Source: Chloroflexota bacterium (GTDB lineage: Bacteria > Chloroflexota > UBA11872 > VXNJ01). Taken from it: a DNA stretch of 64,000 nucleotides. The notes beneath the pieces are model-generated. The model saw only the letters and a program-made list of their open reading frames with translations, did no database searches and was not told the DNA's origin. The stretch spans positions 2,329,549 through 2,393,548 of the forward strand of contig OZ253449.1 of the NCBI GenBank assembly GCA_965261345.1, given 5' to 3'. Each line of letters starts with the position of its first letter. Position 1 is the first letter of the stretch. The position numbers were made by a program, and so were the translations under genes. This document shows positions 25,832 through 48,164 of this stretch, piece by piece.

Positions 25832-26401
25832 TCACCGCCTCCCGAATTTTGCGGCAGGCACGAGTAGCACGGACCCGCATCGGGCAAATGCCGCGATGTA
25901 GCCAAGCGCCAAAAGGCTCGATCAGACCGCCTGCTTCTGGACCGATGCGGAAACGACGGATGCTGCTGCCTATCACATCGCCCATCGCGCCGTTGCAATT
26001 GAATTTTGCACGCCAAGTTGCCGCACCGGCACCGTGAAGATCAAAAGTGGTTAGGCTGAAACTGATCTAATCATTTGGCGCACGCATGGCCAGCGTGACC
26101 CGCGCTTTTCGGTCTAATAGTCAAATGGCCGGTTTGGTACGATTCCGCAATTTAATAACGATGGCACACCGCTCTAGGCGCTTCGCCGTTCGGGAGTTTT
26201 GCCGCTCAATGAACGATCAGAATCGGTGTTTACATAATTACCATTATGTCTAACCCTCGTTACCAAAGTCCACTTGACCTCCGCCTTTTTAAATTCCCGT
26301 GCTCCTGGACAACGACCCTCGGCGCACGTTAACTCGGTTAACCAAGGGCGCTCGAAATCAATTCTCAAATTAGAGTATTAGATCGTGACCACTTTGAATT
26401 C

Positions 26402-27040
26402 GTGCCCGCAATGCGATCTCTAAGCGAAAGTGATCACCTCACCTCGAGTTTGGAGGCCGCGACCCAGGGGACCTACGGAACGATCCTGGCCGATCCCCCG
26501 TGGAGGTTCAATAACCGCACAGGGAAAGTCGCTCCTGAATACAAGAGGCTGAATCGCTATTCGTCATTGGCGATTGAGGAAATAAGCGCATTGCCTATAC
26601 AGGATTTCGCGGCCGACGATTCCCATCTGTATTTGTGGGTTCCCAACGCACTGCTTGACGCGGGTCTGGCAGTAATGAGCAAATGGGGCTTCAAATACAA
26701 AACGAACATCGTCTGGCAAAAGGTCGGGAGTGACGGCGAACCGGATCGGCGTGGTGTCGGTTTTTATTTTCGAAACGTTACGGAATTGGTGCTCTTTGGG
26801 GTTCGCGGTTCGAAACGCACTCTGCCTCCGGCAAGGCGCCAAATCAACTTAGTAAAAAGCCGTCGACGAGAACACTCCAGAAAACCCGATGAGCTTTATG
26901 AAATCGCCGAGCAGTGTAGTCCGGGCCCGTATTTGGAATTGTTTGCGCGTCATTGCCGGGAGGGATGGTCGCAATGGGGTGATCAACTCAAAGCTACATC
27001 TGAGTTTTCCGATTCGGCGAGTCGGGTCACGCCGCTGTGA
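26402..27040 (+). CDS. MT-A70 family N6-adenine methyltransferase
   Basis: ILADPPW catalytic motif, HLYLWVPN, WGFKYKTNIVW, FRNVTELVLFG, REHSRKP and YLELFAR. Confidence 0.9.
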   Translation: MPAMRSLSESDHLTSSLEAATQGTYGTILADPPWRFNNRTGKVAPEYKRLNRYSSLAIEEISALPIQDFAADDSHLYLWVPNALLDAGLAVMSKWGFKYKTNIVWQKVGSDGEPDRRGVGFYFRNVTELVLFGVRGSKRTLPPARRQINLVKSRRREHSRKPDELYEIAEQCSPGPYLELFARHCREGWSQWGDQLKATSEFSDSASRVTPL

Positions 27041-27108
27041 CTGTCGGCACTTGGTGAAAGTCGGGTTCGAGGGAAAAGAAAATGCGACCGTGAAGACTCG
27101 AGTGCCGT

Positions 27109-29415
27109 GTGGAAATTGATTCTGCTGCCGACGGCAACAACGGACTCGTTTCGGGAGAAGCCATCGCGGGCGCAATGCGAGGGCGAAAACTCCCATATGT
27201 AGAAAAAACGGTTCCATTCTCTGATCAAGACAGGCACTTATCGGTTGGATGGGTTGTTGTAAGGACCAACAAATCTTCAGTCAGGATACGGAAAGACAAA
27301 AAGCACGACGAACGACTCGAAGATGACGTTTGGGTAACACTAGCGTCGGCAGGATTTGACGAGTTAAATGCGGACCGCCGTTTCTTTATTCCGATTGGTG
27401 ACCCCGGAAGTCGTGTTCCGCCAAAGCAGATAGATGTGATTGCAATAGACAGCGATTCAGTATTGGTTGTCGAGTGCAAATCGTCGGAAAAACCGAAATA
27501 TCGAAGCCTGCAAAAGGATTTGAATGAAACACGAGCTTTGCAGCAGAGTATTCGTGATTGGGTCAATGCCCGGTACGAAGACCGCCGAAGGGTCTGCTTC
27601 CTTTACGTCACGCGAAACATCAGATGGAGCGCTGGAGACCGTGCAAGAGCGGAATCTAACCAAATAGAAATATTGCGCGACTGGCAAATACCCTACTACA
27701 AGCTGCTGGCGGACATTGTTGGTCCCGCCGCCCGTCATCAATTGCAAGCTGATTTGTTTGCTGATTCGCCGATTCAAGGGTTGAAAGCATCCGTTCCCGC
27801 GTTGATGGGCACGTTTGGGGAGACGCGTTTTTATCAATTCGCAATCGAGCCCGAAAAGTTGTTGAAGCTGGCCTATGTTTCACACCGAACAAAAATCGAT
27901 GCGGAGGCAATCGGAACATACCAAAGATTGCTTAAGAAAACACGCCTCAAGCAGATTGCCGCCCACATTGACGAAGCAAGCACCAACAGCATTTTTCCGA
28001 CAAATATCGTAGTGAATTTCAGAAAAACTCGCGGACTTCGCTTTGACAGAGCCGGGCCACGGGGCAATAGCCCAACCGTGTTGGGCACCTTACACCTGCC
28101 AAACGTTTATAAGAGTGCCTGGGTCATTGATGGGCAACACCGGTTATTCGGTTTTGCGCAAAGCCAACGTTCCGACAAAGGAAAAGTACCCGTACTTGCT
28201 TTCGAGGGATTGGATCCGGAAAAAGAAGTCAAGATGTTCGTTGAAATCAACAACAAGCAAGTAAAGGTCCCTCGGAGCTTATTGATTCAGCTCGAGCCAG
28301 AATTGCGTTCAGACGAAGCAGACTTGTCCCAAAAACTGCGAAATCTGCATGTTGAATTGGCATTGGCTTTAGCGAACGATGACGATTCACCGTTGTTCGG
28401 AAGAGTTATCACGTCTGATTGGGACCAAGACGCGACTAGCAAAACCGTTAGTCTTCCGCAGATGGTCACTGGTTTGCGATCCAGCCAATTGGTCGGATCG
28501 GTCCGAAACGATTATGTTGATCCTGGCCCACTTTGGACGGGATTTGAGGCAACTAAACGCCGAGCACTCGCGACCATAACCCTTTATCTGAATTTATTTG
28601 CGACGGGGGCAGAGGATCACTGGGAACGCGGGCGGAACGAAGGCGGGTTCCTTTGTACCAATTTGGGGTTTAACGCCCTATTGAGGCTTTTGAAAGGGAT
28701 ATTGGATTTTCAAAATCACGCCAATCAAGGCATCGATTACCAACAATTCACGCCCGACGAGATCGTCAATTCACTGGCCAAGTACGTGCCACCAATCATC
28801 GATTGGTTCAATCTCAGATTCGACTCGGAAAACTCTAGGTTCCGTGGTCGGTTTGGAAGTGGCGCACCGAAGATTTACGCGTTGGACATGATGGCGTTAA
28901 TTCACAACAAATACGGCGATTTTGACACTGCGGAGTTGCAAGAACACATTCGTGCTGGGGGTGCTGAAAGAGTTGCCGATGCAATTCGGCTGGTAGGCGA
29001 GATTGAAGATTGCATACGGGCTGTGACGTTGTCAGTGCTGAAAGGTGAATTCGGCGGCGATGGAGACCGATGGTGGCGCGAAGGAGTGCCTGGGCCAATT
29101 CGTGTGTCGGCTGCGAGTAGGGCTGAGGTAAGCGCGGACGGTGGCAAACGGGAAGTATTTATCTCGCTAATTGAGTACAAAAAAATTGCTGAACAACCGA
29201 AATTGTGGCGCAAATTTCAGCCACTATGGACGATGGACGCAGATTTGAGATCAAAGGCTGAACGATTGCACTGGATGGACACGTTGAATGGCGTGAGGAA
29301 CAAAGTTGTTCACTCTGGCAGACGACACATCGCCGATGAAGAAATCAGTTTCCTGTGGGACGTTTGGGAGTTTGTGGATCGAGTTTCAACATCGTTGGAG
29401 AATTCGAAATCATGA
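27109..29415 (+). CDS. DGQHR (DndB-like) protein with N-terminal PD-(D/E)XK nuclease-like and C-terminal Swt1-type HEPN-like domains
   Basis: KQIDVIAID...VVECKS; YQRLL...FPTNIVV...WVIDGQHRLFG...FVEINNKQ; WWREGVP...GVRNKVVH (RxxxxH). Start may be ATG 27175. Confidence 0.82.
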   Translation: MEIDSAADGNNGLVSGEAIAGAMRGRKLPYVEKTVPFSDQDRHLSVGWVVVRTNKSSVRIRKDKKHDERLEDDVWVTLASAGFDELNADRRFFIPIGDPGSRVPPKQIDVIAIDSDSVLVVECKSSEKPKYRSLQKDLNETRALQQSIRDWVNARYEDRRRVCFLYVTRNIRWSAGDRARAESNQIEILRDWQIPYYKLLADIVGPAARHQLQADLFADSPIQGLKASVPALMGTFGETRFYQFAIEPEKLLKLAYVSHRTKIDAEAIGTYQRLLKKTRLKQIAAHIDEASTNSIFPTNIVVNFRKTRGLRFDRAGPRGNSPTVLGTLHLPNVYKSAWVIDGQHRLFGFAQSQRSDKGKVPVLAFEGLDPEKEVKMFVEINNKQVKVPRSLLIQLEPELRSDEADLSQKLRNLHVELALALANDDDSPLFGRVITSDWDQDATSKTVSLPQMVTGLRSSQLVGSVRNDYVDPGPLWTGFEATKRRALATITLYLNLFATGAEDHWERGRNEGGFLCTNLGFNALLRLLKGILDFQNHANQGIDYQQFTPDEIVNSLAKYVPPIIDWFNLRFDSENSRFRGRFGSGAPKIYALDMMALIHNKYGDFDTAELQEHIRAGGAERVADAIRLVGEIEDCIRAVTLSVLKGEFGGDGDRWWREGVPGPIRVSAASRAEVSADGGKREVFISLIEYKKIAEQPKLWRKFQPLWTMDADLRSKAERLHWMDTLNGVRNKVVHSGRRHIADEEISFLWDVWEFVDRVSTSLENSKS

Positions 29416-29734
29416 CTATTCGATGTCGAATTGCGCAAGCCGTCGAGACGCCCACTAGTAATTGAGTCGCCAGAAGTACTGTAGTGCAGGAGGCCTCAAA
29501 TACGCCAGATTTTGGCAAAAAAATAAGAAATTAAAGCTGCATTTGGTTTCGCCGTGATACGGTCAGCGATTCCGATTCAGCGCGCCGGTTTGATTGGGGT
29601 TGACGCGGAACGGGAGCCCTAGTTGCGGCCCTTCAACTGATGGCAGGGATTGCCAAGGGGTCCTGAACCGATTCTTTAAATCGCCGGGTCCGAGCCAAAT
29701 TGAATTTTGGGATGAACTTTGATTGACCGACCGC

Positions 29735-30240
29735 CTGCCTATTCAATTCGCATTCTTTTCCTACATGGTGAATCGAATGGCGTTCGAATCATCGAAAAAT
29801 CCAACTGGAGAAGGCAAAGAGTAGCATTCCCACGATCACACGTACGGATCGCGCGCGCGATCCCGATGAGATAGATCGAGCCGGCATTTACGTTCTCTGA
29901 AGTGATTCCGAAGGCGAAGAGGGATTGCCGGTGGCATTTATCGTCCAAGGCGATGGCAAAAAACAACGCTTAGGCACGCATTCAAGATTCAAGGATTCAC
30001 GGAATTGCGGGATTGCGTTATCGAGCCGTGACCAACACTTGAACCCGGCTCGCGTTGGGTACCTTGAATCTTGGCTCCTCGAACTTACACAGGAACTAAA
30101 CAGAGCGAGTTGGACAATTCCAACTTCCCATCTCTCACGTCAATGGGACAAACCGATGCCGCCGAAACGGAGTTGTTTTCGGCAGATGTATTGCTTTGTC
30201 TACTCGCATTTGGGGTGAACTGTTTTGTCCGACCTGAAGA
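29735..30240 (+). pseudogene. GIY-YIG nuclease family remnant
   Basis: Pieces across frames: NGVRIIEKSNW, AGIYVL*, QRLGTH..FKD, VGYLESWL and LDNSNFPSL...LLCL. Confidence 0.65.
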
Positions 30241-30479
30241 TCGGTGTCAATCTCCACCACCATTAGTCCACATCTGTCGCCGCTCAGCGACTTTGTCAGT
30301 CCAACTGTCCAGCAATTGTGTTGATTGTCAAGTCTGAGCGGATGGGTTTGGATGGTGGCTAGTCGAGGGGATTTCATCGACGGCAACTGTCCACACTTTG
30401 CGGCGATCAGTCCACTAACGTATTCGCTCGCAATCTCACCGTGTGCTCTTGAGGTAGTCGCTGCCCGCAACTCTTCGGG

Positions 30480-32176
<1,697 letters not shown>

Positions 32177-33535: not shown

Positions 33536-34477
33536 ATGGCTTCGTTTCCAGACAAATGCCCGCTTTGGGGACCTGAATTCTCTGCACGGGTTTCAGCGCG
33601 TAGTAGACAAGGTCGAATCGATGTTGAATCGCCCCGAACAGGGGGGTGCTTCTGCTCAGACAAGGATGTGTTAAGCAATTTGCATGAGTTGAGCAAACGA
33701 GAAAAAGCAAAACTAACGACTTGGCTCATCGAAAGGAGGAGGCAAGGAGAAGATTGGCCGCGGATTACTCAAGATGTAATCGACGCGGTGGCGCGAACAA
33801 ACCCGTTGCCTGTTTACACCCGGGCTGATCGTTTGCTGCAGCATTTGAGCGAAATTACTACCGAATTTGGAATGCCATTGTCGGCACCGTTTAAACCGTA
33901 CGTGGCCCATGCGATCTCAGAGTCAACTAGTGATCGCGAAGTTGGATTTCTTCGCGATTTTCTCGCCGATCGCGGCTGGATATTGGACAAACCTGGTTGG
34001 TCGGGCATGGATACAGCGCTTAAAGTCGACGGCTTGGCTCGGGTGGAACAATTGACCGTCAACGCAGATTCTCCCCAGGCGTTTGTAGCAATGTGGATAG
34101 ATTCGTCATTGGACAGCGCATATGTCGATGGATTCAAGCCCGCAATTGAGGATTGCGGTTACGTGGCGATGAGGATTGACCAAAAGCCCGATGTCGACAA
34201 ATTAGACGATGAAATCATCGCTGAGATACGGCGTTCGCGATTTGTCGTGGCTGATTTGTCTCAAGACAATAAAGGCGCGCGCGGAAGCGTTTATTTTGAA
34301 GCCGGGTTCGCAATGGGAACGGGTTTACCAGTTATCTTTACTTGTCATAAAGAATGGGACGACGATTTTCATTTTGACATTCGACAGTACGCGCACATTG
34401 TGTGGGACTCGTCGGACAATCTCCGAAAATCGTTAAGTGCCCGAATCTCGGCACGACCGCGATGGGCCCGGTATTGA
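33536..34477 (+). CDS. Protein with C-terminal nucleoside 2-deoxyribosyltransferase (NDT)/TIR-like fold; candidate defence effector
   Basis: QAFVAMW...MRID...IIAEIRRSRFVVADLS...SVYFEAGFAMG..LPVIFTC...FDIRQY; uncharacterised N-terminal half. Confidence 0.7.
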   Translation: MASFPDKCPLWGPEFSARVSARSRQGRIDVESPRTGGCFCSDKDVLSNLHELSKREKAKLTTWLIERRRQGEDWPRITQDVIDAVARTNPLPVYTRADRLLQHLSEITTEFGMPLSAPFKPYVAHAISESTSDREVGFLRDFLADRGWILDKPGWSGMDTALKVDGLARVEQLTVNADSPQAFVAMWIDSSLDSAYVDGFKPAIEDCGYVAMRIDQKPDVDKLDDEIIAEIRRSRFVVADLSQDNKGARGSVYFEAGFAMGTGLPVIFTCHKEWDDDFHFDIRQYAHIVWDSSDNLRKSLSARISARPRWARY

Positions 34478-35786: not shown

Positions 35787-36383
35787 GTGCAAATATCAAC
35801 CATTGCCGATATTAAGCCAGGATTGTCAACGTCTGGAAGGGCGGCAGGCAGCCGCCGTGGCGACTGGGAGCTCCGCATCGTAGAAAGCGCCGACATAGTT
35901 GAGGACTGTTTGCAACTCAGCGGGCTCCGCAAAATAATGGTCGTGCGCAGCACGCGGGCCGAAAAGCACCTCCTTAAGCCATTTGACTTGCTCGTAACTG
36001 CACGCTCCCCGGCGGTAAAGGTCGCATTGGTCCCGCCTGGCGTAACTCGGACTGTCGCGTCATCGACTTTGCTCGTCCTGCGCACTCCTGACCCGGGTTC
36101 CGGATTGGCGCACTTCCTCTGGTTCTACCTCTCATCGACGCACGGTCGGGCTCAGATAGCGGCCAGATTCACGAAAACATTTTTGCCGGCGCTATCGGCG
36201 AAAGCGCTCGGTGAATTGAGAATTCGGTTGCCTGGGCTCATTGAACTTCAACGCTTGGCCGACCTGATTGATGCGGCCGAAATCTCGCGCATTACAGCAA
36301 TTGAGGCCGCGCGCATCAGACATGGCGTGATTCGCGATGCTGTCATCGGCGCGATCACGGCGCCGGCCTATGAAAGGTGTTAA
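35787..36383 (+). CDS. Half-size HsdS-like protein (single TRD plus helix)
   Basis: ISTIADIKPG...LLKPFDLLVTAR...VASSTLLVLR...FLWFYLSS...LGELRIRLPGLIELQRLADL; stop lies 2 nt before hsdM. Confidence 0.7.
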   Translation: MQISTIADIKPGLSTSGRAAGSRRGDWELRIVESADIVEDCLQLSGLRKIMVVRSTRAEKHLLKPFDLLVTARSPAVKVALVPPGVTRTVASSTLLVLRTPDPGSGLAHFLWFYLSSTHGRAQIAARFTKTFLPALSAKALGELRIRLPGLIELQRLADLIDAAEISRITAIEAARIRHGVIRDAVIGAITAPAYERC

Positions 36384-36385
36384 CC

Positions 36386-37918
36386 ATGCCGCTTGAAAAC
36401 AAGGAATTGGAATCAAAACTCTGGGGAGCCGCCGACATCCTCAGAGGCCAGATCGACTCCAGCGACTACAAAAACTACATCTTCTCGATGCTTTTCTTAA
36501 AGCGGCTTAGCGACCGCTTCACCGAGGAGGTCGAGCGTGCCGTCGCCGACGGCCAGCCCCGTCAAGTGGCCTTGCTCGACCCCGATGAGCACGAGTTCTA
36601 CGTTCCACCCGAAGCCCGTTGGAGTGAGATCGTCAGTCAGGCGATGAACCTCGGCGAGGTCGTCAACCGAGCCAGCGCCGAAATCGAGGAAGCCAACGCA
36701 CCCCGGCTCGACGGCGTCCTGCGTAACACGAACTGGAATGACGAGTCCAAACTCGGCAACCCTATCAGTCGCGACCGAATAATCAGTAGACTACTGCGGC
36801 ATTTCGATGCCCTTGACTTGAGCGACGCGAACCTGACAAGTGAGGGTGCCCACGGCGCCGTCAACGTATTGGGCGATGCCTATGAGTACCTAATTAACAA
36901 ATTTGCCGATGATGCCGGCAAGAAGGGCGGCGAGTTTTACACTCCCCGATCGGTAGTTGGTTTGATCGTGGAACTGCTGGAACCAACCGAAGGCATGCGC
37001 ATATGCGATCCCACCGCCGGGTCTGCGGGCATGCTTATTTACGCAGCTCAGTACGTCGCCAAGCAAGGCGGCAATTCGCGGAATCTGGTGCTGCACGGTC
37101 AAGAACGCAACCTCGGAACGCTCGCCATCGGCAAGCTGAACCTGTTGTTGCACAGTCTGCGCTCCGCCCGTTTCGAGGGCGGTGATGTCATCTTGGACCC
37201 GCAGTTACGGGACCAGGACGGTCGCCTGTTTTCCTATGACCGCGTCATCGCCAATCCGCCCTTCAGCCTAAAGGAGTGGGGGCGCGATTTTGCCCCCAAC
37301 GACCCCCATCACCGTTTCGACCGTTTCGGCGCGATTCCGCCGAAAACCAGGGGAGACCTCGCATTCCTCCAGCACATGCTCGCTGTTACCAACGCGGATG
37401 GGATGGTAGGAGTGGTGATGCCGCACGGCATCCTCTTTAGAGTTGGTACAGAGGGCACGATCCGCAAGGGCATCGTCCAGGCCGACCTGTTTGAGGCAGT
37501 CATCGGGTTAGCGCCCAATCTTTTCTATGGCGCCAGCATCCCTGTCGCCGTCTGCATCCTCAACAAAAGCAAACCCCCCGAGCGGCGTGGGAAGGTCCTA
37601 TTCATCGACGCTGCTCAACCAGATTACTTCCGCTCGGGCAAGGCGCAGAACCACCTTGATCAGGCACACGTGGCGAGCATCGTCGAGGCGTTTCGCACCT
37701 TTAAAGAAATCGAGCGCTTTGCGCATGTGGCGGACCTCGCGGAGATCGCCGCCAACGACCACAACCTGAACATCAGTCGCTATGTCGACACCACCGAGCC
37801 GGTCGAGGTCATAAGCGTCAAGGACGCACTGGCGCAGCTCCGCGAGGCGGAGCGGAAGCGTGACGAGGCGGCTGCCCACATGGACGAGTTGCTTGCGGAG
37901 CTGGGCTATGGCCGGTAG
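36386..37918 (+). CDS. hsdM: Type I R-M methyltransferase subunit
   Basis: LWGAADILRG, GKKGGEFYTP, motif I DPTAGSAG, motif IV NPPF and NLNISRY. Confidence 0.95.
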   Translation: MPLENKELESKLWGAADILRGQIDSSDYKNYIFSMLFLKRLSDRFTEEVERAVADGQPRQVALLDPDEHEFYVPPEARWSEIVSQAMNLGEVVNRASAEIEEANAPRLDGVLRNTNWNDESKLGNPISRDRIISRLLRHFDALDLSDANLTSEGAHGAVNVLGDAYEYLINKFADDAGKKGGEFYTPRSVVGLIVELLEPTEGMRICDPTAGSAGMLIYAAQYVAKQGGNSRNLVLHGQERNLGTLAIGKLNLLLHSLRSARFEGGDVILDPQLRDQDGRLFSYDRVIANPPFSLKEWGRDFAPNDPHHRFDRFGAIPPKTRGDLAFLQHMLAVTNADGMVGVVMPHGILFRVGTEGTIRKGIVQADLFEAVIGLAPNLFYGASIPVAVCILNKSKPPERRGKVLFIDAAQPDYFRSGKAQNHLDQAHVASIVEAFRTFKEIERFAHVADLAEIAANDHNLNISRYVDTTEPVEVISVKDALAQLREAERKRDEAAAHMDELLAELGYGR

Positions 37919-38377
37919 CGAGGGCATGGCCCTCCCCGCCGGTTGGGAAATCGTACGTTTGGGGGATGTGGCAGAGGTGGTGATGGGTCAGTCTCCGCCA
38001 GGGGAAGCAGTACTTGATTGGGACGGTGAATCTACCGAGGATGATGGGCTACCGTTTATTCAGGGCAATGCTGAATTTGGAAGTAAATCTCCCCAACCGC
38101 TGAAATGGTGCGTCGATCCATCGAAAGTAGTTGACTCCGCCGACTTGTTGATCAGTGTGAGGGCGCCCGTGGGTCAAACAAATCGAGCTGATCAGCTACT
38201 CGCCATTGGCCGGGGCCTTGCCGGAATCCGATTCACCGGCGCGTATCAACCCTTCGGTTGGCATGTCCTTAACCATGCCAAACGAGATTTTGAACGTGTT
38301 GCTCAGGGAAGCACATTCGGGGCGATAGGCGGCACGGAACTTCGATCTCTTTCGCTGGCACTTCCACCCCTACCTGA

Positions 38378-39601
38378 TGACGTGGACCCTTCTATTGGTA
38401 CCAGGACGAATGTGATTAATCTGGTTCCATAAGAAAGGGACATTCATGGCGAAAAGAAAGTACTCGCCCGAACAGATCATTCACAAGCTCCGCTCGATTG
38501 AGCTGGTTGTCGCGCAAGGCAAGACCGTGTTCGAGGCCTGCCGCGAGGTGGGCATCAACCCCCAGACCTATTACCGCTGGCGCTCCCGCTACGGCGGCAT
38601 GACCATCAGCGAAGCCAAGGAGAACAAGCGCCTGCGCGAGGAGAACACCCGCCTCAAGCAGGCCGTGGCCGATCTGACTCTGGACGTACAGATCTTGAAA
38701 GAGGCGGCCTCGGGAAATTGGTAAGCCCGGAGCGCCGACGTCGATGCGTCAAGCACATTCGGGCTAAATACAAAACATCAGAAAGAAGAACCTGTCAGGT
38801 ATTGGGGCAGCCGCGGCGGACCCAGCGCTATGTGCCCAGACCCGATCCCGAAAACGACAATCTCACCGCCGAGATAAAGACCCTCTCCCTGCGTCATCCA
38901 CGCTACGGCTACAAGCGCATCACCGCGCTGCTTAAGAGCTCAGGCTGGAATGTCAACCGCAAGCGGGTGCTGCGCATCTGGCGCCGGGAGGGCCTTAAGA
39001 TCCCCGTTCGGCAGATCAAGCGCTCCCGCCTCTGGCTGGATGGGGAGCGCAGCATCCGACTGCGGTCCCTTCATCGCAACCACGTCTGGGCTTATGACTT
39101 CGCCTATGCGAGAACCGACGATGGCCGACCACTGCGGATCTTAGTCGTCGTTGATGAATTCACGCGCGAGGCGCTCTCGCTAACGGTCAACCGCACCTTC
39201 ACTTCCAGGGACGTCATCGGGGTCATCTCAGGCCTCATGCTCACCCATGGCATCCCTGGTCACATCCGCTCTGACAACGGACCCGAATTCACCGCCAGGG
39301 CAATAAGGAACTGGTTATCGCAGAACGCAATTAAGACCTCCTACATCAAGCCGGGGGCGCCCTGGGAGAATGGCTATGCTGAGAGCTTCATCGGCAAGCT
39401 CCGCGACGAGCTGCTGGACCGGGAGATATTTTTCAATCTGGCCGAAGCCAAGGTGCTAATGGATGGCTATCGGCGGGAATACAATACCGTCCGGCCGCAC
39501 AGCGCCCTTAGCTACCGGCCGCCAATTCAACCGATCTTAAGATCGGTTGAAACCCAAGCAAATGTCGCATGAAGCTTGGTACCAAGAATGGGTACCCGTC
39601 A
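38378..39601 (+). mobile_element. IS3-family (IS407-like) element, 1224 bp, copy 1
   Basis: TG...CA ends with imperfect IRs (TGACGTGGACCCTTCTATTGGTACCA / TGGTACCAAGAATGGGTACCCGTCA) and a 4-bp TSD CTGA. Confidence 0.96.
38446..39572 (+). CDS. IS3 transposase OrfA (38446-38724) and OrfB (to 39572), probable -1 programmed frameshift
   Basis: HTH OrfA; OrfB with VWAYDF, VVDEFTRE, SDNGPEF and WENGYAESF. Slippery heptamer G GGA AAT at 38712-38718. Confidence 0.92.
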
Positions 39602-40378
39602 CTGAGCAACGCGCTATCGCTTCCGTGCTTGACTCCATCGACAAGGCCATCGAGTGCACTGAGGATGTCATCGCCGCAACTGAGCGGCTGCGCGAGTCCC
39701 TGCTCCACGAGTTGCTCGCGCGTGGCCTCCCTGGTTGGCGCACAGAATGGCGCGAGGTTCCGGGGTTTGGGCCCGTCCCTGACGGCTGGAAGGTCGTACG
39801 GTTGGGAGATGTCGCAGAAGTTGTAGGAGGCGGAACGCCATCTCGGGCCAAGTTTGAGTACTGGGGTGGTGATACACCGTGGGTTGTACCATCGGAAATC
39901 ACGGCATTGTCTGGACGTTATTTGTCTACAACGCGTGAGTCAATTTCGGTATATGGGTCTAGGGCCGCTCGCCTACGAATGATTCCCGCCGGCTCAGTCC
40001 TCCTTACCAGCAGGGCGACTATTGGCGCAACGGCGATCAACACGGTTCCTGTTGCCACCAATCAGGGTTTTCAGAGTCTGATTCCTGGCGATAAGATTTC
40101 CGGACTATGGCTCTATTACGTCGCAACCTCCTTGAAACGGGAGTTGGAAAAAAGGGCCGCGGGGAGCACATTTCGTGAGGTTTCTCGTGAGAGCGTCCGC
40201 TCAATTCGCATCGCCCTTCCATCGCGAGTTGAACAGAAGGCAATTGCGGCGGTGTTGGGTAGCGTGGACGCCACGATCGAAGAAGCGCAGGAGAAATTAA
40301 GAAAGCTGAATTTGTTAAAAATTTCGGCGGCCGAATCGCTCTTAGCAGGGCGGATTCGGTGCAGTATCAAGGACAAAA

Positions 40379-41311
40379 TTGGACAACAATAAAACGATTG
40401 AAATTCGCGCAAGCGATTTGCCAATTGCCCTGTATCTGAATCAACGGGTGACCTTTGACCTGCTCGCCGTCATGGAGGGTGGTTTCGCGCGCGTGACGAC
40501 AGTTCAGGAATCGTCGTCACGCGCAAAGCACTCCGGTGTCGAAGGGAGCGTTGGGCTCGGCACTAGCAATCCATTCGCCTTTCTCGGGTTCACATTCGGG
40601 GCACAGGGACACCGTGACACGGCGACCGCTTCTGGCGGTGTGACAACCGAGGAACTTGTTCACACTCCAACATCATTGTTCGCCAGACTTCGCCAGGAAC
40701 TGATGCGCAGGGGTCTTGTCAGGACAATTGAAAATGAGAGCGCTGACTTTGATACAGTCGCGCCTGGGGAATTTGTCGAGTTTCGAGCGGTATTACGCCG
40801 GTCGCCGTTAGTCGATGTTCTCGATACGTTTCAGCAGTTCGTCCCGATGATGGCCGTTTTCGACGGCGCTAAAGATTCGCCGCGAAAAGGCGGCCGGAAA
40901 CAGCGGGGCGATAGGAGGAAAAATCTAGATCGAACCGCACAGATGCTCCAGCAGATCGCGGCAATTCGCGACGCTGTTTCCGCGGATGGGTCCCAGGACC
41001 TTATTGCGGAGTGTGGCGTGAATCGATTTGTCTTGGCTACGGAAGAGGCATTCTTCGTCGATCCATCAATGAACGATGTCATTGATGGCACCTTCCGAGT
41101 ATTCGGAAAAATCACGCGGGTTGTGCCTAAAAATGCCCCTGAGGGGATAAGCCTTTTCCGCAAGTCCGCTATCGGCAACTTTGGAGGCATTGTTTCGGAG
41201 TTGGGCTCGTCCCTCGCCTCGCTCGGAGACGTAGGTTTCACTGGTCAGAAAGTCGAGACGCAGATACCTGCACCGACCCTCCAGGTGATCCCGATCGGAA
41301 TCTTCGCCTAA
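40379..41311 (+). CDS. DUF6414-like hypothetical protein inserted between hsdS and hsdR
   Basis: 310-aa ORF with YLNQRVTFDLLAVMEGGF...VHTPTSLF...FRVFGKIT...PIGIF. Overlaps the hsdS stop and ends 5 nt before hsdR. Family call from memory. Confidence 0.65.
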   Translation: MDNNKTIEIRASDLPIALYLNQRVTFDLLAVMEGGFARVTTVQESSSRAKHSGVEGSVGLGTSNPFAFLGFTFGAQGHRDTATASGGVTTEELVHTPTSLFARLRQELMRRGLVRTIENESADFDTVAPGEFVEFRAVLRRSPLVDVLDTFQQFVPMMAVFDGAKDSPRKGGRKQRGDRRKNLDRTAQMLQQIAAIRDAVSADGSQDLIAECGVNRFVLATEEAFFVDPSMNDVIDGTFRVFGKITRVVPKNAPEGISLFRKSAIGNFGGIVSELGSSLASLGDVGFTGQKVETQIPAPTLQVIPIGIFA

Positions 41312-41316
41312 CCCCC

Positions 41317-44300
41317 TTGACCTCCCCAGCCAAGCTCAACGAGCTCACCCTCGCTGAAAAACCCGCGCGCCAGTTGTTGGAGCGCCTCGGTTGGACCTAC
41401 ATAGACCGCGAGACGCTGGCGGCGGAGCGCGACGACGAACGAAACGTGTTCCTCTACGAGCGGTTGACGTCTGCGCTCATGCGCCTCAACGAGTGGATGA
41501 CCAAGGACCAGGCGCAGCGCGTCATCTTCAATCTCCAGCACTTGAATGGAATTGGGCTCGCGCGCAACCAGGCCATCCACACCTATCTCTCTCACGGCAT
41601 GCCGCTCACTGTCGACCGTGGCGGCCGGCAGGAGACGCCCACCGTTCGGTTCTTCGATTTCGACCACCCGGAACCGGGAGTCGGACTCAATGAATACGTG
41701 GTTACCACGCAGTTCCGTGTGCGGCGCAGCACCGAGCGCGGCGCCCCGCGAACCAGCGAGGACGACTCCCGCGTCGTCAAGCCAGACATTGTGCTGTTCG
41801 TGAACGGCATCCCCCTCGTGGTGCTGGAGGCGAAGTCACCTACGCTGTTTGACGTGTGGAAACAACAAGCCGTCAAGCAGTTGCACCGCTACCAGGAGGC
41901 CGAATCGGAATGGCACGGCACCGGCGCCCCCGAGCTTTTTGAGACGAACCTCATGTGCGTCGCACTCTGCGGCGCCGATGCTGCATTCGGCTCCCTCGGC
42001 GCGCCCGAGAACACCTACGCCGGCTGGAAGTCGATCGACCCGTTCACGGAGATGGAATTCGAGCGTCGCTTCGGCACACCACCCCAGGGCCAGGCGCGGC
42101 TCATCACGGGGCTGCTAAATCCGACGACGCTCCTCGATATCCTGCGTGACTTTGTTATCTTCGAGCACGAGCGCGGGCGGCTGGTGAAGAAGCTGCCCCG
42201 CTACCAGCAGTACCGCGCGGTTCGCCACGCCCTCGACCGGATCCTCAGAGGCCGCACACCACAGGAAAGAGGAGGCGTCGTGTGGCACACGCAGGGTTCG
42301 GGCAAATCGCTCACCATGCTCTGGCTGACGATCAAGCTGCGCCGCTCACCTTCCCTCCGAAATCCCACCATCGTCGTCGTTACCGATCGGGTTCAACTCG
42401 ACCGCCAGATCACGGCCACCTTCCAGAAAACATCCATTGTCGAACCGGAGCGTGCGACCAGCACTCGGCGCCTCCGCGCATTGCTCGGCACGAACAACGG
42501 ACGGACGATCATGACGACCATCCAGAAGTTCGAGGATGTGCTGAATCTTCCTGCCGGTGCGAATTCTCACACCAACGCTGCAGATAACATCATCGTCATG
42601 GTCGACGAGGCGCATCGGACGCAGTACGGCCGTCTGGCGGCGAAGATGCGAAGGGCTATGCCCCAGGCGACGTTCGTCGGCTTCACGGGCACTCCCGTAG
42701 ACAAGGGTTTCAAGCGAACCACGCTTCGCGTTTTCGGCGAGGTTATCGATTCGTACAGCATTCCGCAGTCGGTAGAGGACGGCGCCACTGTAGCCATCCA
42801 CTACGAAGCCCGCCTCCCTGAGCTGCACGTGGATGGTCCCGACACACTCGACCGGCTTTTCGAGGCACTCTTTGGCGATGAGCCAGAAGAGATTCGCACG
42901 GCGATCCGTCGCCGCTATGCCAACAAGGAGCGGATAGCAGAAGCGGCCAAACGAATCGAAGTGATCGCGCTTGACATCTCCGAGCATTTCAAGGCAAAGG
43001 TCCAGCCGAACGGTTTCAAGGCGCAAGTTGTTGTACCCAGTCGCGCCGCGGCGATCAGCTACGCGGAGCACCTTAACGTCTTCGGCCTGGCCGCTTATCC
43101 GGTGATCTCCACTTCCCACGACGATGGAATAGAGTTCGAATCGGCCCGTCAACTAAACACGGACACAATCATCGAGGACTTCATTGATCCCGACGGGGAA
43201 CCTCAGATCCTGGTCGTAGTCGACAGGCTCATCACTGGCTTTGATGCGCCCGTTGAGCAGGTCCTCTACCTTGATCGCTCGATCCGCGAGCATACGCTGC
43301 TACAGACGATTGCGCGTGTTAATCGGCGCTTCTCCCACATGAAGAATGGCGTCCCGACCGAGAAGCGCTACGGCCTTGTCGTCGACTACCACGGCGTCTC
43401 TCGGGAACTTGAGAGCGCCCTCGCCATCTTCGACGACTACGACCTCGAGCAGACGCTCACTGAATTGCCCGAGGATCCTGGTCCCGTAATTCAGGCTGCT
43501 GCCGATAGGGCCGAAGCGCACTTCCGCGGGTCGGACCTTGACGACCGTTGGGCGTGCGTGAACCACTTCGCCCCTGATGTCACGACTGAGGGCGACTACA
43601 AGGCCGATGCCTACGAGCGCTTCGACCGCGACTACCGGGACTTTTCCATGTTGATGGACCGCTTCCTGCCCGACCCTGCGGCGCTTGCGTACCTCGACCG
43701 GTTGCGCAGGCTCACCGTCATTCGGTCGTATGCGCGAGCCCAATTCCTGCGCGAGAACGCCGACATCGACTGGACGGCCGTTGGGGCGAAGGTGAAGCGG
43801 CTCCTCGACTCACGTATCGACGCGAGCGTACGCGTGCTCATGACGCCGGTATCCATCCTCGACCAAGATTTCGAACAGAAGATCGGGCGCCTTCCCCACG
43901 ACGAGGCGCGTGCGTCACTGATGGAACACGCGCTCAAAGCGCAGATCAATGAGCGAGTCGAAGAGAATCCTGCCTTTTATGAGCGGCTCTCCGAGGCACT
44001 AGAACGAATCATTCGAGAACTCCGCGCCCGCGTAATTGACGCCGCCGAGGGTTGCAAGAAAATGGCGGCCCTTCGAGCCGAGATATCGCGCGAAGAGGCC
44101 ATTGCAATCGCCCACGGCCTTACGCCCGTGTCATTCGCCGTTTACGGCCTCCTCATCGGGAAGACTTCGAGGGGTGGTAGCCAAACTGACAGCATTTGTG
44201 AGCTGGCAGAAGACGTGGAGCCCGGAGGCGGGCTGAAGGACGCGGCCCGCGACATCGAAGCGGTCATCCAGAATCATCGCTCAATCATCGATTGGCGGGA

Positions 44301-44433
44301 GAACTTGGACGTGCAGCGAGAGATGCGACGCGACATCAAGCGGCTCCTCCGAGAAACCAAGATTTGTGATGAGGACGAGCTCGATGAGCTTGTACGTCAG
44401 GTGGTCGAGGTGGGCAGGAGACGACTCACATGA
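41317..44433 (+). CDS. hsdR: Type I R-M restriction subunit
   Basis: PDIVLFVNGIPLVVLEAK nuclease motif, HTQGSGKS Walker A, DEAH, FTGTP, LITGFDAP and QTIARVNR. Confidence 0.95.
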   Translation: MTSPAKLNELTLAEKPARQLLERLGWTYIDRETLAAERDDERNVFLYERLTSALMRLNEWMTKDQAQRVIFNLQHLNGIGLARNQAIHTYLSHGMPLTVDRGGRQETPTVRFFDFDHPEPGVGLNEYVVTTQFRVRRSTERGAPRTSEDDSRVVKPDIVLFVNGIPLVVLEAKSPTLFDVWKQQAVKQLHRYQEAESEWHGTGAPELFETNLMCVALCGADAAFGSLGAPENTYAGWKSIDPFTEMEFERRFGTPPQGQARLITGLLNPTTLLDILRDFVIFEHERGRLVKKLPRYQQYRAVRHALDRILRGRTPQERGGVVWHTQGSGKSLTMLWLTIKLRRSPSLRNPTIVVVTDRVQLDRQITATFQKTSIVEPERATSTRRLRALLGTNNGRTIMTTIQKFEDVLNLPAGANSHTNAADNIIVMVDEAHRTQYGRLAAKMRRAMPQATFVGFTGTPVDKGFKRTTLRVFGEVIDSYSIPQSVEDGATVAIHYEARLPELHVDGPDTLDRLFEALFGDEPEEIRTAIRRRYANKERIAEAAKRIEVIALDISEHFKAKVQPNGFKAQVVVPSRAAAISYAEHLNVFGLAAYPVISTSHDDGIEFESARQLNTDTIIEDFIDPDGEPQILVVVDRLITGFDAPVEQVLYLDRSIREHTLLQTIARVNRRFSHMKNGVPTEKRYGLVVDYHGVSRELESALAIFDDYDLEQTLTELPEDPGPVIQAAADRAEAHFRGSDLDDRWACVNHFAPDVTTEGDYKADAYERFDRDYRDFSMLMDRFLPDPAALAYLDRLRRLTVIRSYARAQFLRENADIDWTAVGAKVKRLLDSRIDASVRVLMTPVSILDQDFEQKIGRLPHDEARASLMEHALKAQINERVEENPAFYERLSEALERIIRELRARVIDAAEGCKKMAALRAEISREEAIAIAHGLTPVSFAVYGLLIGKTSRGGSQTDSICELAEDVEPGGGLKDAARDIEAVIQNHRSIIDWRENLDVQREMRRDIKRLLRETKICDEDELDELVRQVVEVGRRRLT

Positions 44434-45158
44434 GTGAGCATGGCGAAGTAAGTTTCGGCGGTGCGGTCGTCCGGTACGAGGTCGTCCGGAGTCCCAGGCG
44501 CCACAAAACTATTGAGATCACAGTGGACAAGCCCGGATTGGTGAGAGTTGCCGCGCCTCAGGGCACCCCTGCCGAACAGCTCGAGGCCACGGTCTTAAGT
44601 CGAGCGGGTTGGATAATCCGCCACGATGGCGCTGCGTCGGCCGCCCTTCCGCCGCGAAGGTTTGTGAGCGGCGAGTCTCTCCCCTATCTCGGGCGATCCG
44701 TGAACCTCACTGTTCTCCCCACTGACGACGAAGCGGTCGTGGTCAGTTTCAATCATTGGAAATTTGATGTCTATTCCCCGGGCTCACTCCGGGACGCCGG
44801 GCGTCGAGAGAAGATCCGTGCCGCGTTTGAAGAATGGTACCGCGACCGTGCAGGACTGAAGCTGCCTCCCCGAGTCGATCGCATCGCAGGCCTCCTCGGC
44901 GTTTACCCGAAAGAGATTCTCATACGGAACCAGCGTCGTCGTTGGGCGAGTTGCGGCCCGGACGGAACGCTTAGGTTCAACTGGCGAATTATTATGGCGC
45001 CGCCCTCTCTCCTCGACTACGTCGTTGCCCACGAACTCGCTCACCTCCGCGTACGTGACCACACTCCCGAGTACTGGGCCGTGGTAGCTCAGGCGGTGCC
45101 GGACTACCGCCTTCGCCGTGAGCGACTTCGGGAGGCGGGTCCCCTCTTCAATATTTGA
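44430..45158 (+). CDS. M48/YgjP-like (DUF45) metallopeptidase commonly downstream of hsdR
   Basis: FVSGESLPYLGR, RWASC, FNWRII and DYVVAHELAHL...HTPEYW; ATGA overlap with hsdR. Confidence 0.88.
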   Translation: MSEHGEVSFGGAVVRYEVVRSPRRHKTIEITVDKPGLVRVAAPQGTPAEQLEATVLSRAGWIIRHDGAASAALPPRRFVSGESLPYLGRSVNLTVLPTDDEAVVVSFNHWKFDVYSPGSLRDAGRREKIRAAFEEWYRDRAGLKLPPRVDRIAGLLGVYPKEILIRNQRRRWASCGPDGTLRFNWRIIMAPPSLLDYVVAHELAHLRVRDHTPEYWAVVAQAVPDYRLRRERLREAGPLFNI

Positions 45159-45386: not shown

Positions 45387-48134
45387 TCAGTTGAATCTCT
45401 CAGTTTCTATTTCTCTCCTGACCTCGGGAAACGGGTCATTCCTACCAATGTCCAACCAAGTGATGACAGTTTCGTCGCTTTCGAGTCCCTCGTCAGCCAG
45501 TTGATTGGCAATGCGCGTGCAGAGTAGTCGCAATACGTGAACGTCGTTTTTAAAATCGTTCTTACCGTATTTGAGGCGGGGCGAAAGTTGACTCAATCCT
45601 CGAAGAACCAGCGGTTTCATCGCCTCCGAATTCTGCGGCGTCCCCAACTCGATCACCTGGCTGGCGCAATAAAGTACATCCGCCAACGCGCCGGTGCTTG
45701 CTCCTGCGACAATCGCGCCCAATTCCCTAATCAATTCGTTAGGCACTGGTGGAAACTCATTAGATTGCGCCGCCGAAAGCCAAGTGTGAATTGCGCCCAA
45801 TGACGCAGACACTAGCGCCTCATCCAATGAAGTAATTCCGGTAATCAACCCGTCAATTAATTCATCCCGTCGCCCCGGCGCCGCGTTGACTAATCCTGGC
45901 GTCAACATAAATGACAGTGAATCTCGAACTTGAATAACTGGCGCCAAAAGAGGGTGAACTTGATCGGATCGATCGCGGCGCAACGATCCGATCAAGTCAA
46001 TTAGAGCGATTGCATCATCAGGGCGGATTGTGATTGCAGATGCCAGATAACCGATATGTTCGATGCGGCTGCCAATACCAAGATCGAGTGAAATCGAATC
46101 GCCGGCGAACATTTCGACTAACCTGACGATGTCATGTGAAAGGCGCAGCTCTTCTTCTTGTGAAATAGCGAGCTGCCTGTCAGCTTCGCGCAGTCCAGCA
46201 ATCGCTGCACCGACTTGCGCAAGGCCTCCGCTTATTCCGACCATTCCCTTCAATTCGTTTGCCCCATGCCGATCCAGCCATTTCTTGCGAAATGACAATT
46301 CCGCAGCACCTTTGCGTGGTTCAGGTAATACCAAATAAACCCAATCCCAAGGGGCGTTAGCACCGCCTGAGCTTTCAAGAATCGGATCCGCGTCACCCCA
46401 CAGAATTTCGGTCAATTTGGCCAATTCAACGTCCGATATTCGCCCGGAACGAATTAACAACAATGCCCGCAATATCGCTCTTTCGCTGGCTTCTCGATCT
46501 CCGCGCAGGGCTTTCGAAATAACGGTCATGGCTTGATGATCAATTTCGCCGACACCCTTCTCACTCACCGGATTCAAGTCGCTTGCACTGATCACCGTTC
46601 CCGGATCCACGCGGTTCAATTGGCCTTCAAATCCTTTGGTGTCGCTGATCGGGACGGTAAGTAACTCCAATGCGCGATCTCGACGAACGTTGGCGGGTAG
46701 CGCTGCCCAAGTACGATTGAGCAAATTGTTCAAGGGTGCCGTCGTCGCCAAATGGCGAGTCAATTTTTCCTCTTGGTAGCACTTCATCCAAATGTCCAAT
46801 GCCTCGCCCATGACCGAATCCGGTGCCCGCAGGACAAGACGTGAAAGTGCTTCCAACGAAATAAGGCACCGATCAGCCCAAGAGTGTTTCCCAATTCCAG
46901 GGCGCGATCCATCTAACCGGGGCAACGACTGACTTATCAGCGCCAGTGCGACATTCAACAAAGTTTGGACGGTTTTTTCCGGGAAAGCGCCAATTTGGGC
47001 GCGGGACAATACTCGGTTGAAGCTCTTGTCGGTTGGCGAAGTGCAAACTCGCAGGATCATCCGCGCCGCGAATTCAGGATGCATCGGGAGCAATGCTTCG
47101 GCAGACGCTTTCAACATGCCAATTGACAATGAAATCGGCCAACCGTCGCCTTCTTTGGAAATGCAAATCAAGGGTAATCCCGCAATTTCAGTCATCCTTA
47201 TTGCTCTGAATGCCGCAAAATACTGGGCACGACCAGCCTGAGACCAACTAATGTTGAGAACATTTCCTATTACGGGGTCAAAAGTTGGCGCAGAATCATG
47301 GCCCGTTTCGTTGACCAGGGCGCGGCTGGCGAGTTCTTTTTCGGCCAACACGTCGCACTTGTAAGCGGCCAACTTATCCAATTCGCGACGAGTTTCTTGT
47401 TGATTCCTCGAGTTCAGAGTAGCTGCTAAGGCCCACGCTTCTCTTGAAGCCGTCGCAATTGTTTTAGCTTCAACGCCAATTGACCTAGTAGCGTCGCACG
47501 CAAGTTGCGCCAATGCGAGCGCCTCCGACCCCCTACACGATTCGAATAACAATGCAGCTTTCCGCAATTGCCACGCCGGATCGGCTCCATCGACATTCCA
47601 CTCGTCAAGAAGGCCATCTACGGAATCGAAATCTCCCGAATAAACCGCCCAAAGACTTCTTTCGTGGATGACCCGGTGATTGGCTTCGGGGTCCTCCTGC
47701 AATATCGAAAGGTATTCCGACAATCGCCTGTCGAACTTTGATCTGTCCCAATCAAGCCTGGCATCAGTCAATAGCGCCAATGCGACCGACCGCCAAGCCA
47801 TTCGAAATTCCACCGCGTTATTCTGTTGCCCTTCGATGGTCTTGCCCGGATCGAGAGACCAATCAATTGATTCCATCACGCGACAGGCAGCTGCCTCCAA
47901 GTCCACAGATATTGGTTGGAGCAGGATTTCGCGACGCCAAAACAATTCCCGCAATGCCGACAAGCACTTGAAAGTTGACCAACCTCCAAGTGCATCGAGG
48001 ATTTTTGGCTCCCATTCATCAGTGACTGTTGCCATATGTAATCGTCCCGGCCCGGTCGGAAACACCAACCAGCCTGGGTATATACGCCGATTGTGGCACC
48101 ACACTTCTAGTGTTTTCTGGACTTGGTCTTCCAC
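45387..48134 (-). CDS. C-terminal (helical, probable sensor) part of a Dsr1-like SIR2 defence protein
   Basis: 915-aa ORF beginning W.HNRRIYPGWL and ending DPFPEVR; same frame as the upstream SIR2 ORF. Confidence 0.65.
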   Translation of the reverse strand: MEDQVQKTLEVWCHNRRIYPGWLVFPTGPGRLHMATVTDEWEPKILDALGGWSTFKCLSALRELFWRREILLQPISVDLEAAACRVMESIDWSLDPGKTIEGQQNNAVEFRMAWRSVALALLTDARLDWDRSKFDRRLSEYLSILQEDPEANHRVIHERSLWAVYSGDFDSVDGLLDEWNVDGADPAWQLRKAALLFESCRGSEALALAQLACDATRSIGVEAKTIATASREAWALAATLNSRNQQETRRELDKLAAYKCDVLAEKELASRALVNETGHDSAPTFDPVIGNVLNISWSQAGRAQYFAAFRAIRMTEIAGLPLICISKEGDGWPISLSIGMLKASAEALLPMHPEFAARMILRVCTSPTDKSFNRVLSRAQIGAFPEKTVQTLLNVALALISQSLPRLDGSRPGIGKHSWADRCLISLEALSRLVLRAPDSVMGEALDIWMKCYQEEKLTRHLATTAPLNNLLNRTWAALPANVRRDRALELLTVPISDTKGFEGQLNRVDPGTVISASDLNPVSEKGVGEIDHQAMTVISKALRGDREASERAILRALLLIRSGRISDVELAKLTEILWGDADPILESSGGANAPWDWVYLVLPEPRKGAAELSFRKKWLDRHGANELKGMVGISGGLAQVGAAIAGLREADRQLAISQEEELRLSHDIVRLVEMFAGDSISLDLGIGSRIEHIGYLASAITIRPDDAIALIDLIGSLRRDRSDQVHPLLAPVIQVRDSLSFMLTPGLVNAAPGRRDELIDGLITGITSLDEALVSASLGAIHTWLSAAQSNEFPPVPNELIRELGAIVAGASTGALADVLYCASQVIELGTPQNSEAMKPLVLRGLSQLSPRLKYGKNDFKNDVHVLRLLCTRIANQLADEGLESDETVITWLDIGRNDPFPEVRREIETERFN

Positions 48135-48164
48135 CGCTCGCGCCTTTTTTTGGAACCCTGGCTA

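Follow-up and report, generated by a model that had tools for sequence, protein, structure and literature searches.

The window analysed here, 64,000 nt of contig OZ253449.1 from a Chloroflexota bacterium (GCA_965261345.1), contains two adjacent genes, one for an MT-A70 family DNA methyltransferase and one for a large protein with putative nuclease, DGQHR and HEPN domains, which probably form a self-contained, horizontally mobile defence cassette resembling a restriction–modification (R-M) system, with the large protein as its effector. The initial annotation of this DNA had described two intact, co-oriented open reading frames (ORFs) 68 nt apart, and both occur in the ORF list where it had placed them (Table 1), the two-gene form spanning 3.0 kb. 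All of the motifs that it quoted are likewise found in the translations: DPPW in the methyltransferase and, in the large protein, QID (Q107-I108-D109), VVECK (V120-V121-E122-C123-K124), DGQHR (D341-G-Q-H-R345) and RNKVVH (R730-N-K-V-V-H735).

In the mechanism that we propose, the MT-A70 enzyme, drawn from the lineage of BglII-type Type II systems, would methylate a short site in host DNA and thereby mark self, and the large protein would have replaced the classical endonuclease as effector. Its DGQHR domain, which is ParB-like and probably binds nucleoside triphosphates (NTPs), would bind or scan DNA under NTP control and license the N-terminal PD-(D/E)xK DNase on DNA without the mark. The HEPN domain would dimerise the protein and possibly add RNA cleavage as a second, abortive layer. 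Three points of this scheme are inferred: protection by methylation, gating of the nuclease by NTP, and RNase activity of the HEPN domain. The scheme does not call for binding between the two proteins.

Table 1. Features of the gene pair, the surrounding cassette and the neighbouring defence genes (positions in the 64,000-nt window)
Feature	Position	Strand	Remarks
Left end of variable cassette and non-coding region upstream of operon	26232..26401		Contig starts; depth and GC change
MT-A70 family DNA amino-methyltransferase gene	26402..27040	+	212 aa; DPPW at residues 31-34
Intergenic spacer in putative operon	27041..27108	+	68 nt
Large-protein (putative effector) gene	27109..29415	+	768 aa; three domains: PD-(D/E)xK, DGQHR, HEPN
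PD-(D/E)xK nuclease-fold domain, residues ~64-217	27298..27759	+	E71, D109, E122-C123-K124; VIA-align
DGQHR (ParB/Srx-superfamily, DndB/DpdB-like) domain, residues 230-531	27796..28701	+	IDGQHRL at 340-346
Swt1/AbiF-like HEPN domain, residues 617-768	28957..29415	+	R730-x4-H735; VIA-align
Low-GC cassette tail without supported gene	29416..30315		GC 0.50 up to 30 kb; right limit near 41-nt repeat
Multi-copy 41-nt repeat, right cassette limit	30275-30315		Loose contig ends; inverted copy ~4.4 kb away on same contig
IS110 transposase gene	30558-31904		Follows 41-nt repeat
TIR-effector-like ORF, probable fragment	33536-34477		Profile positions 231-361/388
Type I R-M locus, hsdS interrupted by insertion sequence	35787-45158		rve-family transposase at 38718-39572
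Dsr2-type SIR2 gene split in two ORFs	45387-49187	-	48165-49187 = profile 19-293; 45387-48134 = profile 311-1219
Mrr/PDC-S02-like ORF, probable fragment	52205-53080		Profile positions 1-257/334

Domains and conserved motifs of the large protein

An AlphaFold2 model of the large protein, built from a 23-member family alignment (mean predicted local distance difference test score 84; predicted template-modelling score 0.66), was compared with 48,161 chains using VIA-align. The N-terminal domain aligned best with the nuclease-fold protein AF1548 (1y88; Z 12.1, root-mean-square deviation 2.1 over 113 aligned residues), with further matches to VC1899 (Z 9.9), Can2 (Z 9.2), Card1 (Z 9.1) and NucS (Z 8.8). 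Pfam matches to the same region were weak (Hjc, 0.0033; NERD, 0.059; Card1, 0.11), and a protein-atlas search of the N-terminal part returned NERD and Mrr_cat clusters at 0.79-0.87, which we regard as leads alone. The middle domain is clearly recognized from sequence, matching the DGQHR family TIGR03187 at 1.6e-46 (159 bits, against a cut-off of 58.85), the PADLOC DpdB model at 1.5e-23 and Pfam DndB at 2.1e-14; in the model (residues ~232-400) its nearest folds include PadC (Z 7.7), the N-terminal domain of pNOB8 ParB (Z 7.4), KorB (Z 6.7) and sulfiredoxin (Z 5.7). The C-terminal domain resembles AbiF (8vz6; Z 8.2 over 132 residues) and the C-terminal domain of yeast Swt1 (4pqz; Z 7.1), with lesser matches to the AF_0298 HEPN protein (Z 6.2), Csm6 (Z 5.9) and the sacsin HEPN domain (Z 5.7), and it matches the PADLOC candidate family PDC-M34B at 1.4e-5. 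Because Z values below ~13 can arise by chance for helical bundles, a range that includes the HEPN values of 7-8, the HEPN call leans also on relatives that match HEPN_Swt1 and on the Rx4H motif. The Rx4-6H motif of the HEPN superfamily is present, as RNKVVH, within a predicted helical HEPN fold, and the three regions put forward in the initial annotation are backed by both sequence and fold evidence.

The motifs of all three domains are conserved among 70 full-length homologues. The putative nuclease residues E71, D109, E122 and C123 are kept in 69, 68, 69 and 70 members, respectively, IDGQHRL is invariant (70/70), and R730 and H735 of the HEPN motif are each kept in 65. The invariance of the DGQHR motif alone is one reason to ask whether the large protein serves chiefly, like DndB and DpdB, to assist or regulate DNA modification, loading or limiting the neighboring modification enzyme on DNA, with its nuclease and HEPN domains secondary or structural. 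In favor of this alternative, DpdB and DndB are its best family matches, DndB has been described as an ATP-dependent regulator of modification in the accessible part of PMC10853773, and nuclease or HEPN motifs have been lost in a few members. Against it, the putative catalytic residues of the nuclease (68-69/70) and the HEPN arginine and histidine are kept almost as widely, the same methyltransferase lineage does without any such helper in BglII-type systems, and the scores fall far below the equivalog cut-offs (77.5 versus 300 bits for DpdB; 87.1 versus 450 for DGQHR_dnd_1). We therefore consider a principally regulatory role unlikely, and favor that of effector.

Partner modules and inheritance of the pair

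The large protein belongs to a sizeable family: a phmmer search of 1.84 billion representatives returned 2112 matches at E ≤ 1e-3, 1130 at E ≤ 1e-10 and 419 at E ≤ 1e-30 (the last being clusters at 50% identity), and a word-indexed search gave 2303 matches at E ≤ 1e-3 among 8000 scored candidates. Of the 150 best phmmer matches, 134 reach 700 aa or more and can be aligned over nearly their whole length, and almost all family members are ~760 aa. The family is spread over many bacterial phyla and archaea.

To describe its gene neighborhoods, we surveyed the best 80 loci of 496 confirmed relatives, with one genome per species. ORFs were called by a greedy rule, immediate neighbors were scanned against Pfam (147 proteins), and all called ORFs were then searched by phmmer with seed proteins (E ≤ 1e-6). 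A modification-type module lies within 6 kb of the large-protein gene in 68 of the 80 loci, a near-obligate pairing in which three kinds of partner recur. First, an MT-A70 gene stands directly upstream on the same strand in nine loci (L001-L008 and L010), all from Chloroflexota and encoding the closest relatives of the window protein (43-56% identity). Second, a D12 (Dam-class) methyltransferase gene adjoins in 22 loci, upstream in 13, downstream on the same strand in eight and downstream on the opposite strand in one. Across these 31 methyltransferase-linked loci the two genes are co-stranded in 30, and the methyltransferase lies -7 to 140 nt from the tblastn match to the large protein (2-140 nt from the methyltransferase ORF to the start of the match in the MT-A70 loci, with a 4-nt overlap of the two genes by ORF coordinates in L008). 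Third, a radical-SAM protein (~540 aa) and/or a GHKL ATPase (~520 aa) lies within 6 kb in 37 loci, about eight of which also encode a small DGQHR protein (~330-380 aa) near the module.

The initial annotation had named rarity of MT-A70 neighbors among homologues as grounds for refuting its proposal. By that rule MT-A70 adjacency is indeed rare, being confined to one Chloroflexota clade (9/80 loci). Since the partner in most other loci is itself of modification type (D12, 22/80; radical-SAM, 37/80), the idea of self-marking is strengthened rather than weakened, and the MT-A70 link is one case of a broader effector–modifier pairing.

The radical-SAM module occurs in loci such as L014, L027, L034 and L067, where methyltransferase genes are absent, and in plasmid contexts, on pNL1 of Novosphingobium aromaticivorans (L081 9281-13421) and on an Agrobacterium plasmid; its proteins match no PADLOC system. 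The radical-SAM partner has an invariant CxxxCxxC motif and matches Pfam Radical_SAM weakly in all 26 proteins scanned (best 6.9e-7), two of which also carry a B12-binding domain; its nearest solved sequences are RimO and TM_1862 (E ~3e-3), and the GHKL partner is an HSP90-like ATPase. Radical-SAM, GHKL and small DGQHR proteins may constitute a DNA-modification module, and the radical-SAM partner hints at an undescribed DNA modification. The kind of partner is also reflected in the putative nuclease site. Residue 124 is lysine in 35 of the 70 homologues and threonine in 33; it is lysine in 10/10 MT-A70-linked and 18/20 D12-linked members (28/30 methyltransferase-linked in total) and threonine in 30/33 radical-SAM-linked members. 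In the radical-SAM clade, either the catalytic lysine would have moved or the nuclease chemistry would differ.

A more general reading of these neighborhoods is possible, and we advance it tentatively as the less probable extension of our proposal: ~760-aa PD-(D/E)xK-DGQHR-HEPN proteins could be widespread, cross-domain effectors against unmodified DNA with interchangeable self-marking modules (MT-A70, Dam-class, or radical-SAM/GHKL/small-DGQHR), the last of these installing an undescribed DNA modification. If so, the window pair would be the simplest and most tractable member of a new R-M class, one that combines a ParB-type NTP switch with an intrinsic RNase fail-safe.

Phylogenetic analysis indicates that the pair is inherited as a unit. 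In a tree of the 70 full-length large proteins, the 10 MT-A70-linked rows, including the window protein, form one clade (Shimodaira–Hasegawa approximate likelihood ratio test support 100). Partner labels change 10 times over this tree, compared with a mean of 32 for shuffled labels, and none of 200 shuffles gave a count as low; the minimum number of changes is six for D12 and five for radical-SAM. Likewise, the methyltransferase tree gathers the 15 rows found ahead of a large protein (12 distinct) into one clade (support 96/95), whose neighbors are BglII-linked and orphan methyltransferases. The 12 distinct pairs are therefore monophyletic in both trees. The flanks of the nine MT-A70 loci hold unrelated housekeeping genes (e.g. 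chorismate synthase, transporters and glyoxalase), and within 3 kb of these loci PADLOC found no other restriction enzyme except a weak REase_II match 2.7 kb away in L008. In these respects the suggestion that the two genes make up one conserved, self-contained module has held.

The window methyltransferase itself matches MT-A70 (PF05063) over the entire profile (positions 1-172/172; E 1.6e-30) and the PADLOC MTase_II model PDLC03221 at 1.5e-81. Two hallmarks of Type II R-M are present, namely an S-adenosylmethionine-dependent DNA methyltransferase whose catalytic motif is intact and an adjoining nuclease with an endonuclease fold (as predicted) and conserved catalytic residues; a third, site-specific cleavage blocked by the cognate methylation, would be expected of the pair, and palindrome statistics (below) offered no pointer to it. 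The gene is the only MT-A70 gene in the host genome. Homologues occur in 35 of 401 genomes of the phylum, and that search found none in four other genomes of the genus or seven of the family. Two genomes in the tally (G145 and G173) carry an unpublished flag, and they are used for no other claim. To place its lineage, 22 loci with close homologues (at least 55% identity) were inspected with 1.5-kb flanks. A BglII-family endonuclease (PF09195) adjoins the methyltransferase in 10 of these (57-68% identity), the large protein follows it in five (three of them the same sequences as in L003, L005 and L007), and neither is present in seven. The simplest history would be a single recruitment of the methyltransferase of a BglII-type system by the large protein, after which the pair was inherited as a unit. 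As a separate observation, in two archaeal loci (L011 8293-9954 and L015 8714-10281) a BglII-type endonuclease and its own methyltransferase adjoin a pair of D12 methyltransferase and large protein, an arrangement that echoes the BglII-lineage origin of the MT-A70 partner.

The modified base would be N6-methyladenine (m6A) or N4-methylcytosine (m4C); membership of the BglII-type Type II lineage does not settle between them, and a literature search on M.BglII and MT-A70 returned nothing on the methylated base. Convergence of all the partner methyltransferases on GATC-core sites would be a guess, since palindrome statistics (below) lend it no support.

The distribution of methyltransferase partners bears directly on a second alternative, in which adjacency is incidental, the methyltransferase being an orphan of a BglII-type system and the large protein an independent abortive-infection or Type IV-like effector that acts regardless of the mark. 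Most close homologues of the methyltransferase are indeed linked to BglII-type enzymes or stand alone, six effector loci lack any partner module despite full flanks, and defence genes cluster in islands anyway. However, the 12 distinct pairs share the same order, strand and short spacer in addition to their monophyly, they lie between unrelated housekeeping genes rather than in islands, an unrelated methyltransferase class (D12) occupies the same position in 22 more loci, and the cassette moves as a unit (see below). Incidental adjacency is therefore unlikely.

Several observations nonetheless weigh against an R-M-like cassette with the large protein as effector. On the side of the large protein, a Foldseek search of the Protein Data Bank (PDB) returned nothing at E ≤ 1e-3, even though the highest-ranked rows were without exception PD-(D/E)xK nucleases; the similarity of the HEPN domain falls in the range open to chance; and Pfam HEPN_Swt1 (PF18731) matches 12 of the 23 family members (best 1.4e-5), the window protein having no match at E ≤ 1. 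A search of PDB sequences with the family profile gave chance-level matches (best E 0.021). The HEPN motif is lost in four of the 30 methyltransferase-paired members (L010, L071, L073 and L079) and the nuclease motif in L021 and L070, so that each can be dispensed with in some lineages; the DGQHR motif, in contrast, is constant. With respect to pairing, no partner module was found in 12 of the 80 loci. In six of these (L031, L058, L060, L063, L065 and L078) the contig ends ~0.5 kb or less from the gene, and the other six (L009, L024, L028, L037, L059 and L072) have full 6-kb flanks, which indicates that the large protein can exist without an adjoining modifier. On the side of the methyltransferase, linkage to BglII-type enzymes in 10/22 loci and solitary occurrence in 7/22, against 5/22 with the large protein, mark it as a generic Type II enzyme. 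GATC-core palindromes are not avoided in the genome (observed/expected ratios: GATC, 1.05; AGATCT, 0.96; GGATCC, 0.97; TGATCA, 0.97; CGATCG, 0.94), and the target site is consequently unreadable from sequence. In addition, the two window proteins sit on long terminal branches of their trees (0.67 and 0.97), and the literature searched contained no experiments on any family member.

Mobility and genomic surroundings

The pair resides on a mobile unit of ~4 kb (~26.2-30.3 kb), within which GC content is ~0.50 (26-30 kb) compared with ~0.59 around it. Its limits were drawn from contigs of public metagenomic runs (X5, X6 and X8), none of them RNA runs, and the cassette varies from one metagenomic sample to another. 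Contigs from two other studies begin at 26232, and in X8 the contigs that start there are preceded by unlike sequence. Depth in X6 is ~10 in the flanks (to 26248 and from 30284) and ~2 inside the cassette; it jumps at 30147-30307 in three runs and reaches 12-34 in the 41-nt repeat. A 3578-nt contig from X5 covers 26232-29799 with 38 substitutions and no gaps (98.9% identical). Among the X5 differences listed, a partial list from which 21 rows over all runs are excluded, 13 are synonymous and six nonsynonymous in the large gene, and four are synonymous and three nonsynonymous in the methyltransferase gene, which fits purifying selection on a mobile unit. Consistent with horizontal movement, the large protein was found in none of six genomes of the same genus, none of 18 of the same family, and two of 22 of a neighboring family. 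No direct or inverted repeats were found flanking the cassette ends, and gene order in congeners has been reshuffled too far for an empty site to be defined. The + strand upstream of the methyltransferase gene shows no convincing sigma-70 promoter, and a promoter and terminator scan returned fewer sites than shuffled sequence, none usefully placed.

Mobility, patchy distribution and low GC content, together with the presence of five full-length homologues on plasmids, would also suit a third alternative, in which the pair is chiefly a selfish addiction module that stabilizes the mobile cassette by post-segregational killing and has little antiviral role. Such a function is compatible with defence, as classical R-M systems do both, and sequence cannot separate the two roles; as the chief role of the pair we rate it very unlikely, and retain defence as the preferred function. 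Among 50,697 phage records there was no full-length homologue of the large protein, only eight matches to the DGQHR domain.

To the right of the cassette lie several other defence genes, most of which the initial annotation had described as broken. This is broadly right: the Dsr2-type gene is split, hsdS of the Type I locus is cut by an insertion sequence, and the Mrr/PDC-S02-like and TIR ORFs are partial, in a window where the pair is intact (Table 1). In the Type I locus, a DUF6414 gene additionally separates hsdS from hsdR, which is itself followed by a YgjP-like metallopeptidase gene; an ORF at 50893-51747 has Pfam scores identical to those of the rve-family transposase ORF at 38718-39572. 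Elsewhere in the genome, a second, stand-alone DGQHR protein of 378 aa (G000:C1:1372456-1373592; L122 8457-9593) is encoded in a defence cluster with an OLD-family nuclease (648 aa), a TIR-like protein and a large helicase.

Comparison with known systems

The initial annotation had called the pair an uncharacterized two-gene system, and this stands to the extent that no system model of PADLOC 2.0.0 matches the pair beyond generic MTase_II and domain-level matches. Specifically, the five PADLOC matches of the large protein at E ≤ 1 are DpdB, DndB and three PDC-M34B, and none is named Dzb, in a set that should include Dazbog models. The claim to novelty is narrower with respect to the domains, as computational work of 2013 had already drawn attention to the fusion of ParB-like and HEPN domains and to its association with modification genes. 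In the accessible parts of the two papers concerned, HEPN domains are mostly RNases that are repeatedly fused to R-M nucleases and never to methylases (Anantharaman et al. 2013, PMC3710099), and fusions of COG1479/DGQHR domains with PD-(D/E)xK and HEPN domains are reported to occur alongside modification systems (Makarova et al. 2013, PMC3632139). The proposal in PMC3710099 has the same domain combination and the same R-M link as ours. The domain combination is thus already in print; what these parts of PMC3710099 and PMC3632139 contain is table entries and a general hypothesis, with no two-gene system, partner survey or experiment. The full-length homologue on pNL1 (34% identity, 96% coverage) might correspond to Saro_3948 of the same species in PMC3710099, although the identity of the gene could not be verified. 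Literature searches on DGQHR (from 2021 onward), PDC-M34 and DndB-like plus HEPN proteins, with subscription journals largely outside their coverage, returned nothing relevant.

Modification systems with DGQHR proteins were considered as assignments for the pair. DndB and DpdB share the DGQHR domain with the large protein; they are stand-alone proteins of ~350-380 aa without an N-terminal nuclease. Identity with either was rejected on the scores given above (TIGR04172, DGQHR_dnd_1, for DndB; NF041060 for DpdB) and on the lack of DndC and DpdA in the genome. The initial annotation had reported no dnd, dpd or BglII-type partner in the window, and the search extends this result: DndC (TIGR03183; DndD and DndE were without a separate search), DpdA (NF041059) and BglII-family endonucleases had no match across the 2.39-Mb genome, which is 95% complete, and no Dnd component was found among 22 scanned ORFs of the window. 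The BglII-type search, which used PF09195, was repeated by phmmer (1e-3) with two BglII-type proteins of relatives because the PF09195 control matched nothing in control genomes. D12 methyltransferases and the radical-SAM/GHKL module were also absent from the host genome by phmmer (1e-3). PbeA had been named among DGQHR proteins, which is incorrect: as described in the accessible part of PMC10853773, it joins an HKD nuclease to an SF2 helicase, and PbeABCD further comprises a CxC ABC ATPase and a DndE-like partner. Membership of PbeABCD was rejected, as neither protein of the pair (PADLOC) nor any scanned window ORF matches PbeA. The same source describes members of the ParB/Srx superfamily that act as NTPases and nucleases.

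The closest classical relative is the BglII/BstYI-type Type II R-M system, which shares the methyltransferase lineage, the operon-like two-gene layout and a PD-(D/E)xK partner. However, that partner is a BglII-fold enzyme of ~200 aa, whereas the window effector has 768 aa with added ParB-like and HEPN domains and no similarity to PF09195.

GmrSD, BrxU and SspE enzymes attack or sense modified DNA. In them, too, a domain of the ParB/Srx superfamily (the DUF262 ParB-like NTPase) that bears a DGQ(H/Q)R motif is joined to a DNA nuclease, in defence linked to DNA modification. The motif likeness of such DUF262-type domains (DGQ(H/Q)R) is described in the accessible part of PMC4619093, and viral DUF262/GmrSD-N proteins are structural neighbors of our middle domain. 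These enzymes combine DUF262 with a C-terminal HNH domain (DUF1524), in contrast to the N-terminal PD-(D/E)xK and C-terminal helical HEPN-like domains found here, and the large protein falls outside their definition, matching neither Pfam DUF262 nor DUF1524 at E ≤ 1. Unlike them, the window effector has a methyltransferase gene of its own alongside. Should the pair function as proposed, it would represent a new type of R-M effector that joins a ParB-like NTP-binding module to a DNase and a HEPN domain, and the 3.0-kb size of the MT-A70 form makes it directly testable in a laboratory host. Overall, such a system would link self-marking by methylation to the ParB–nuclease logic of GmrSD, SspE and BrxU and to HEPN-mediated abortive infection.

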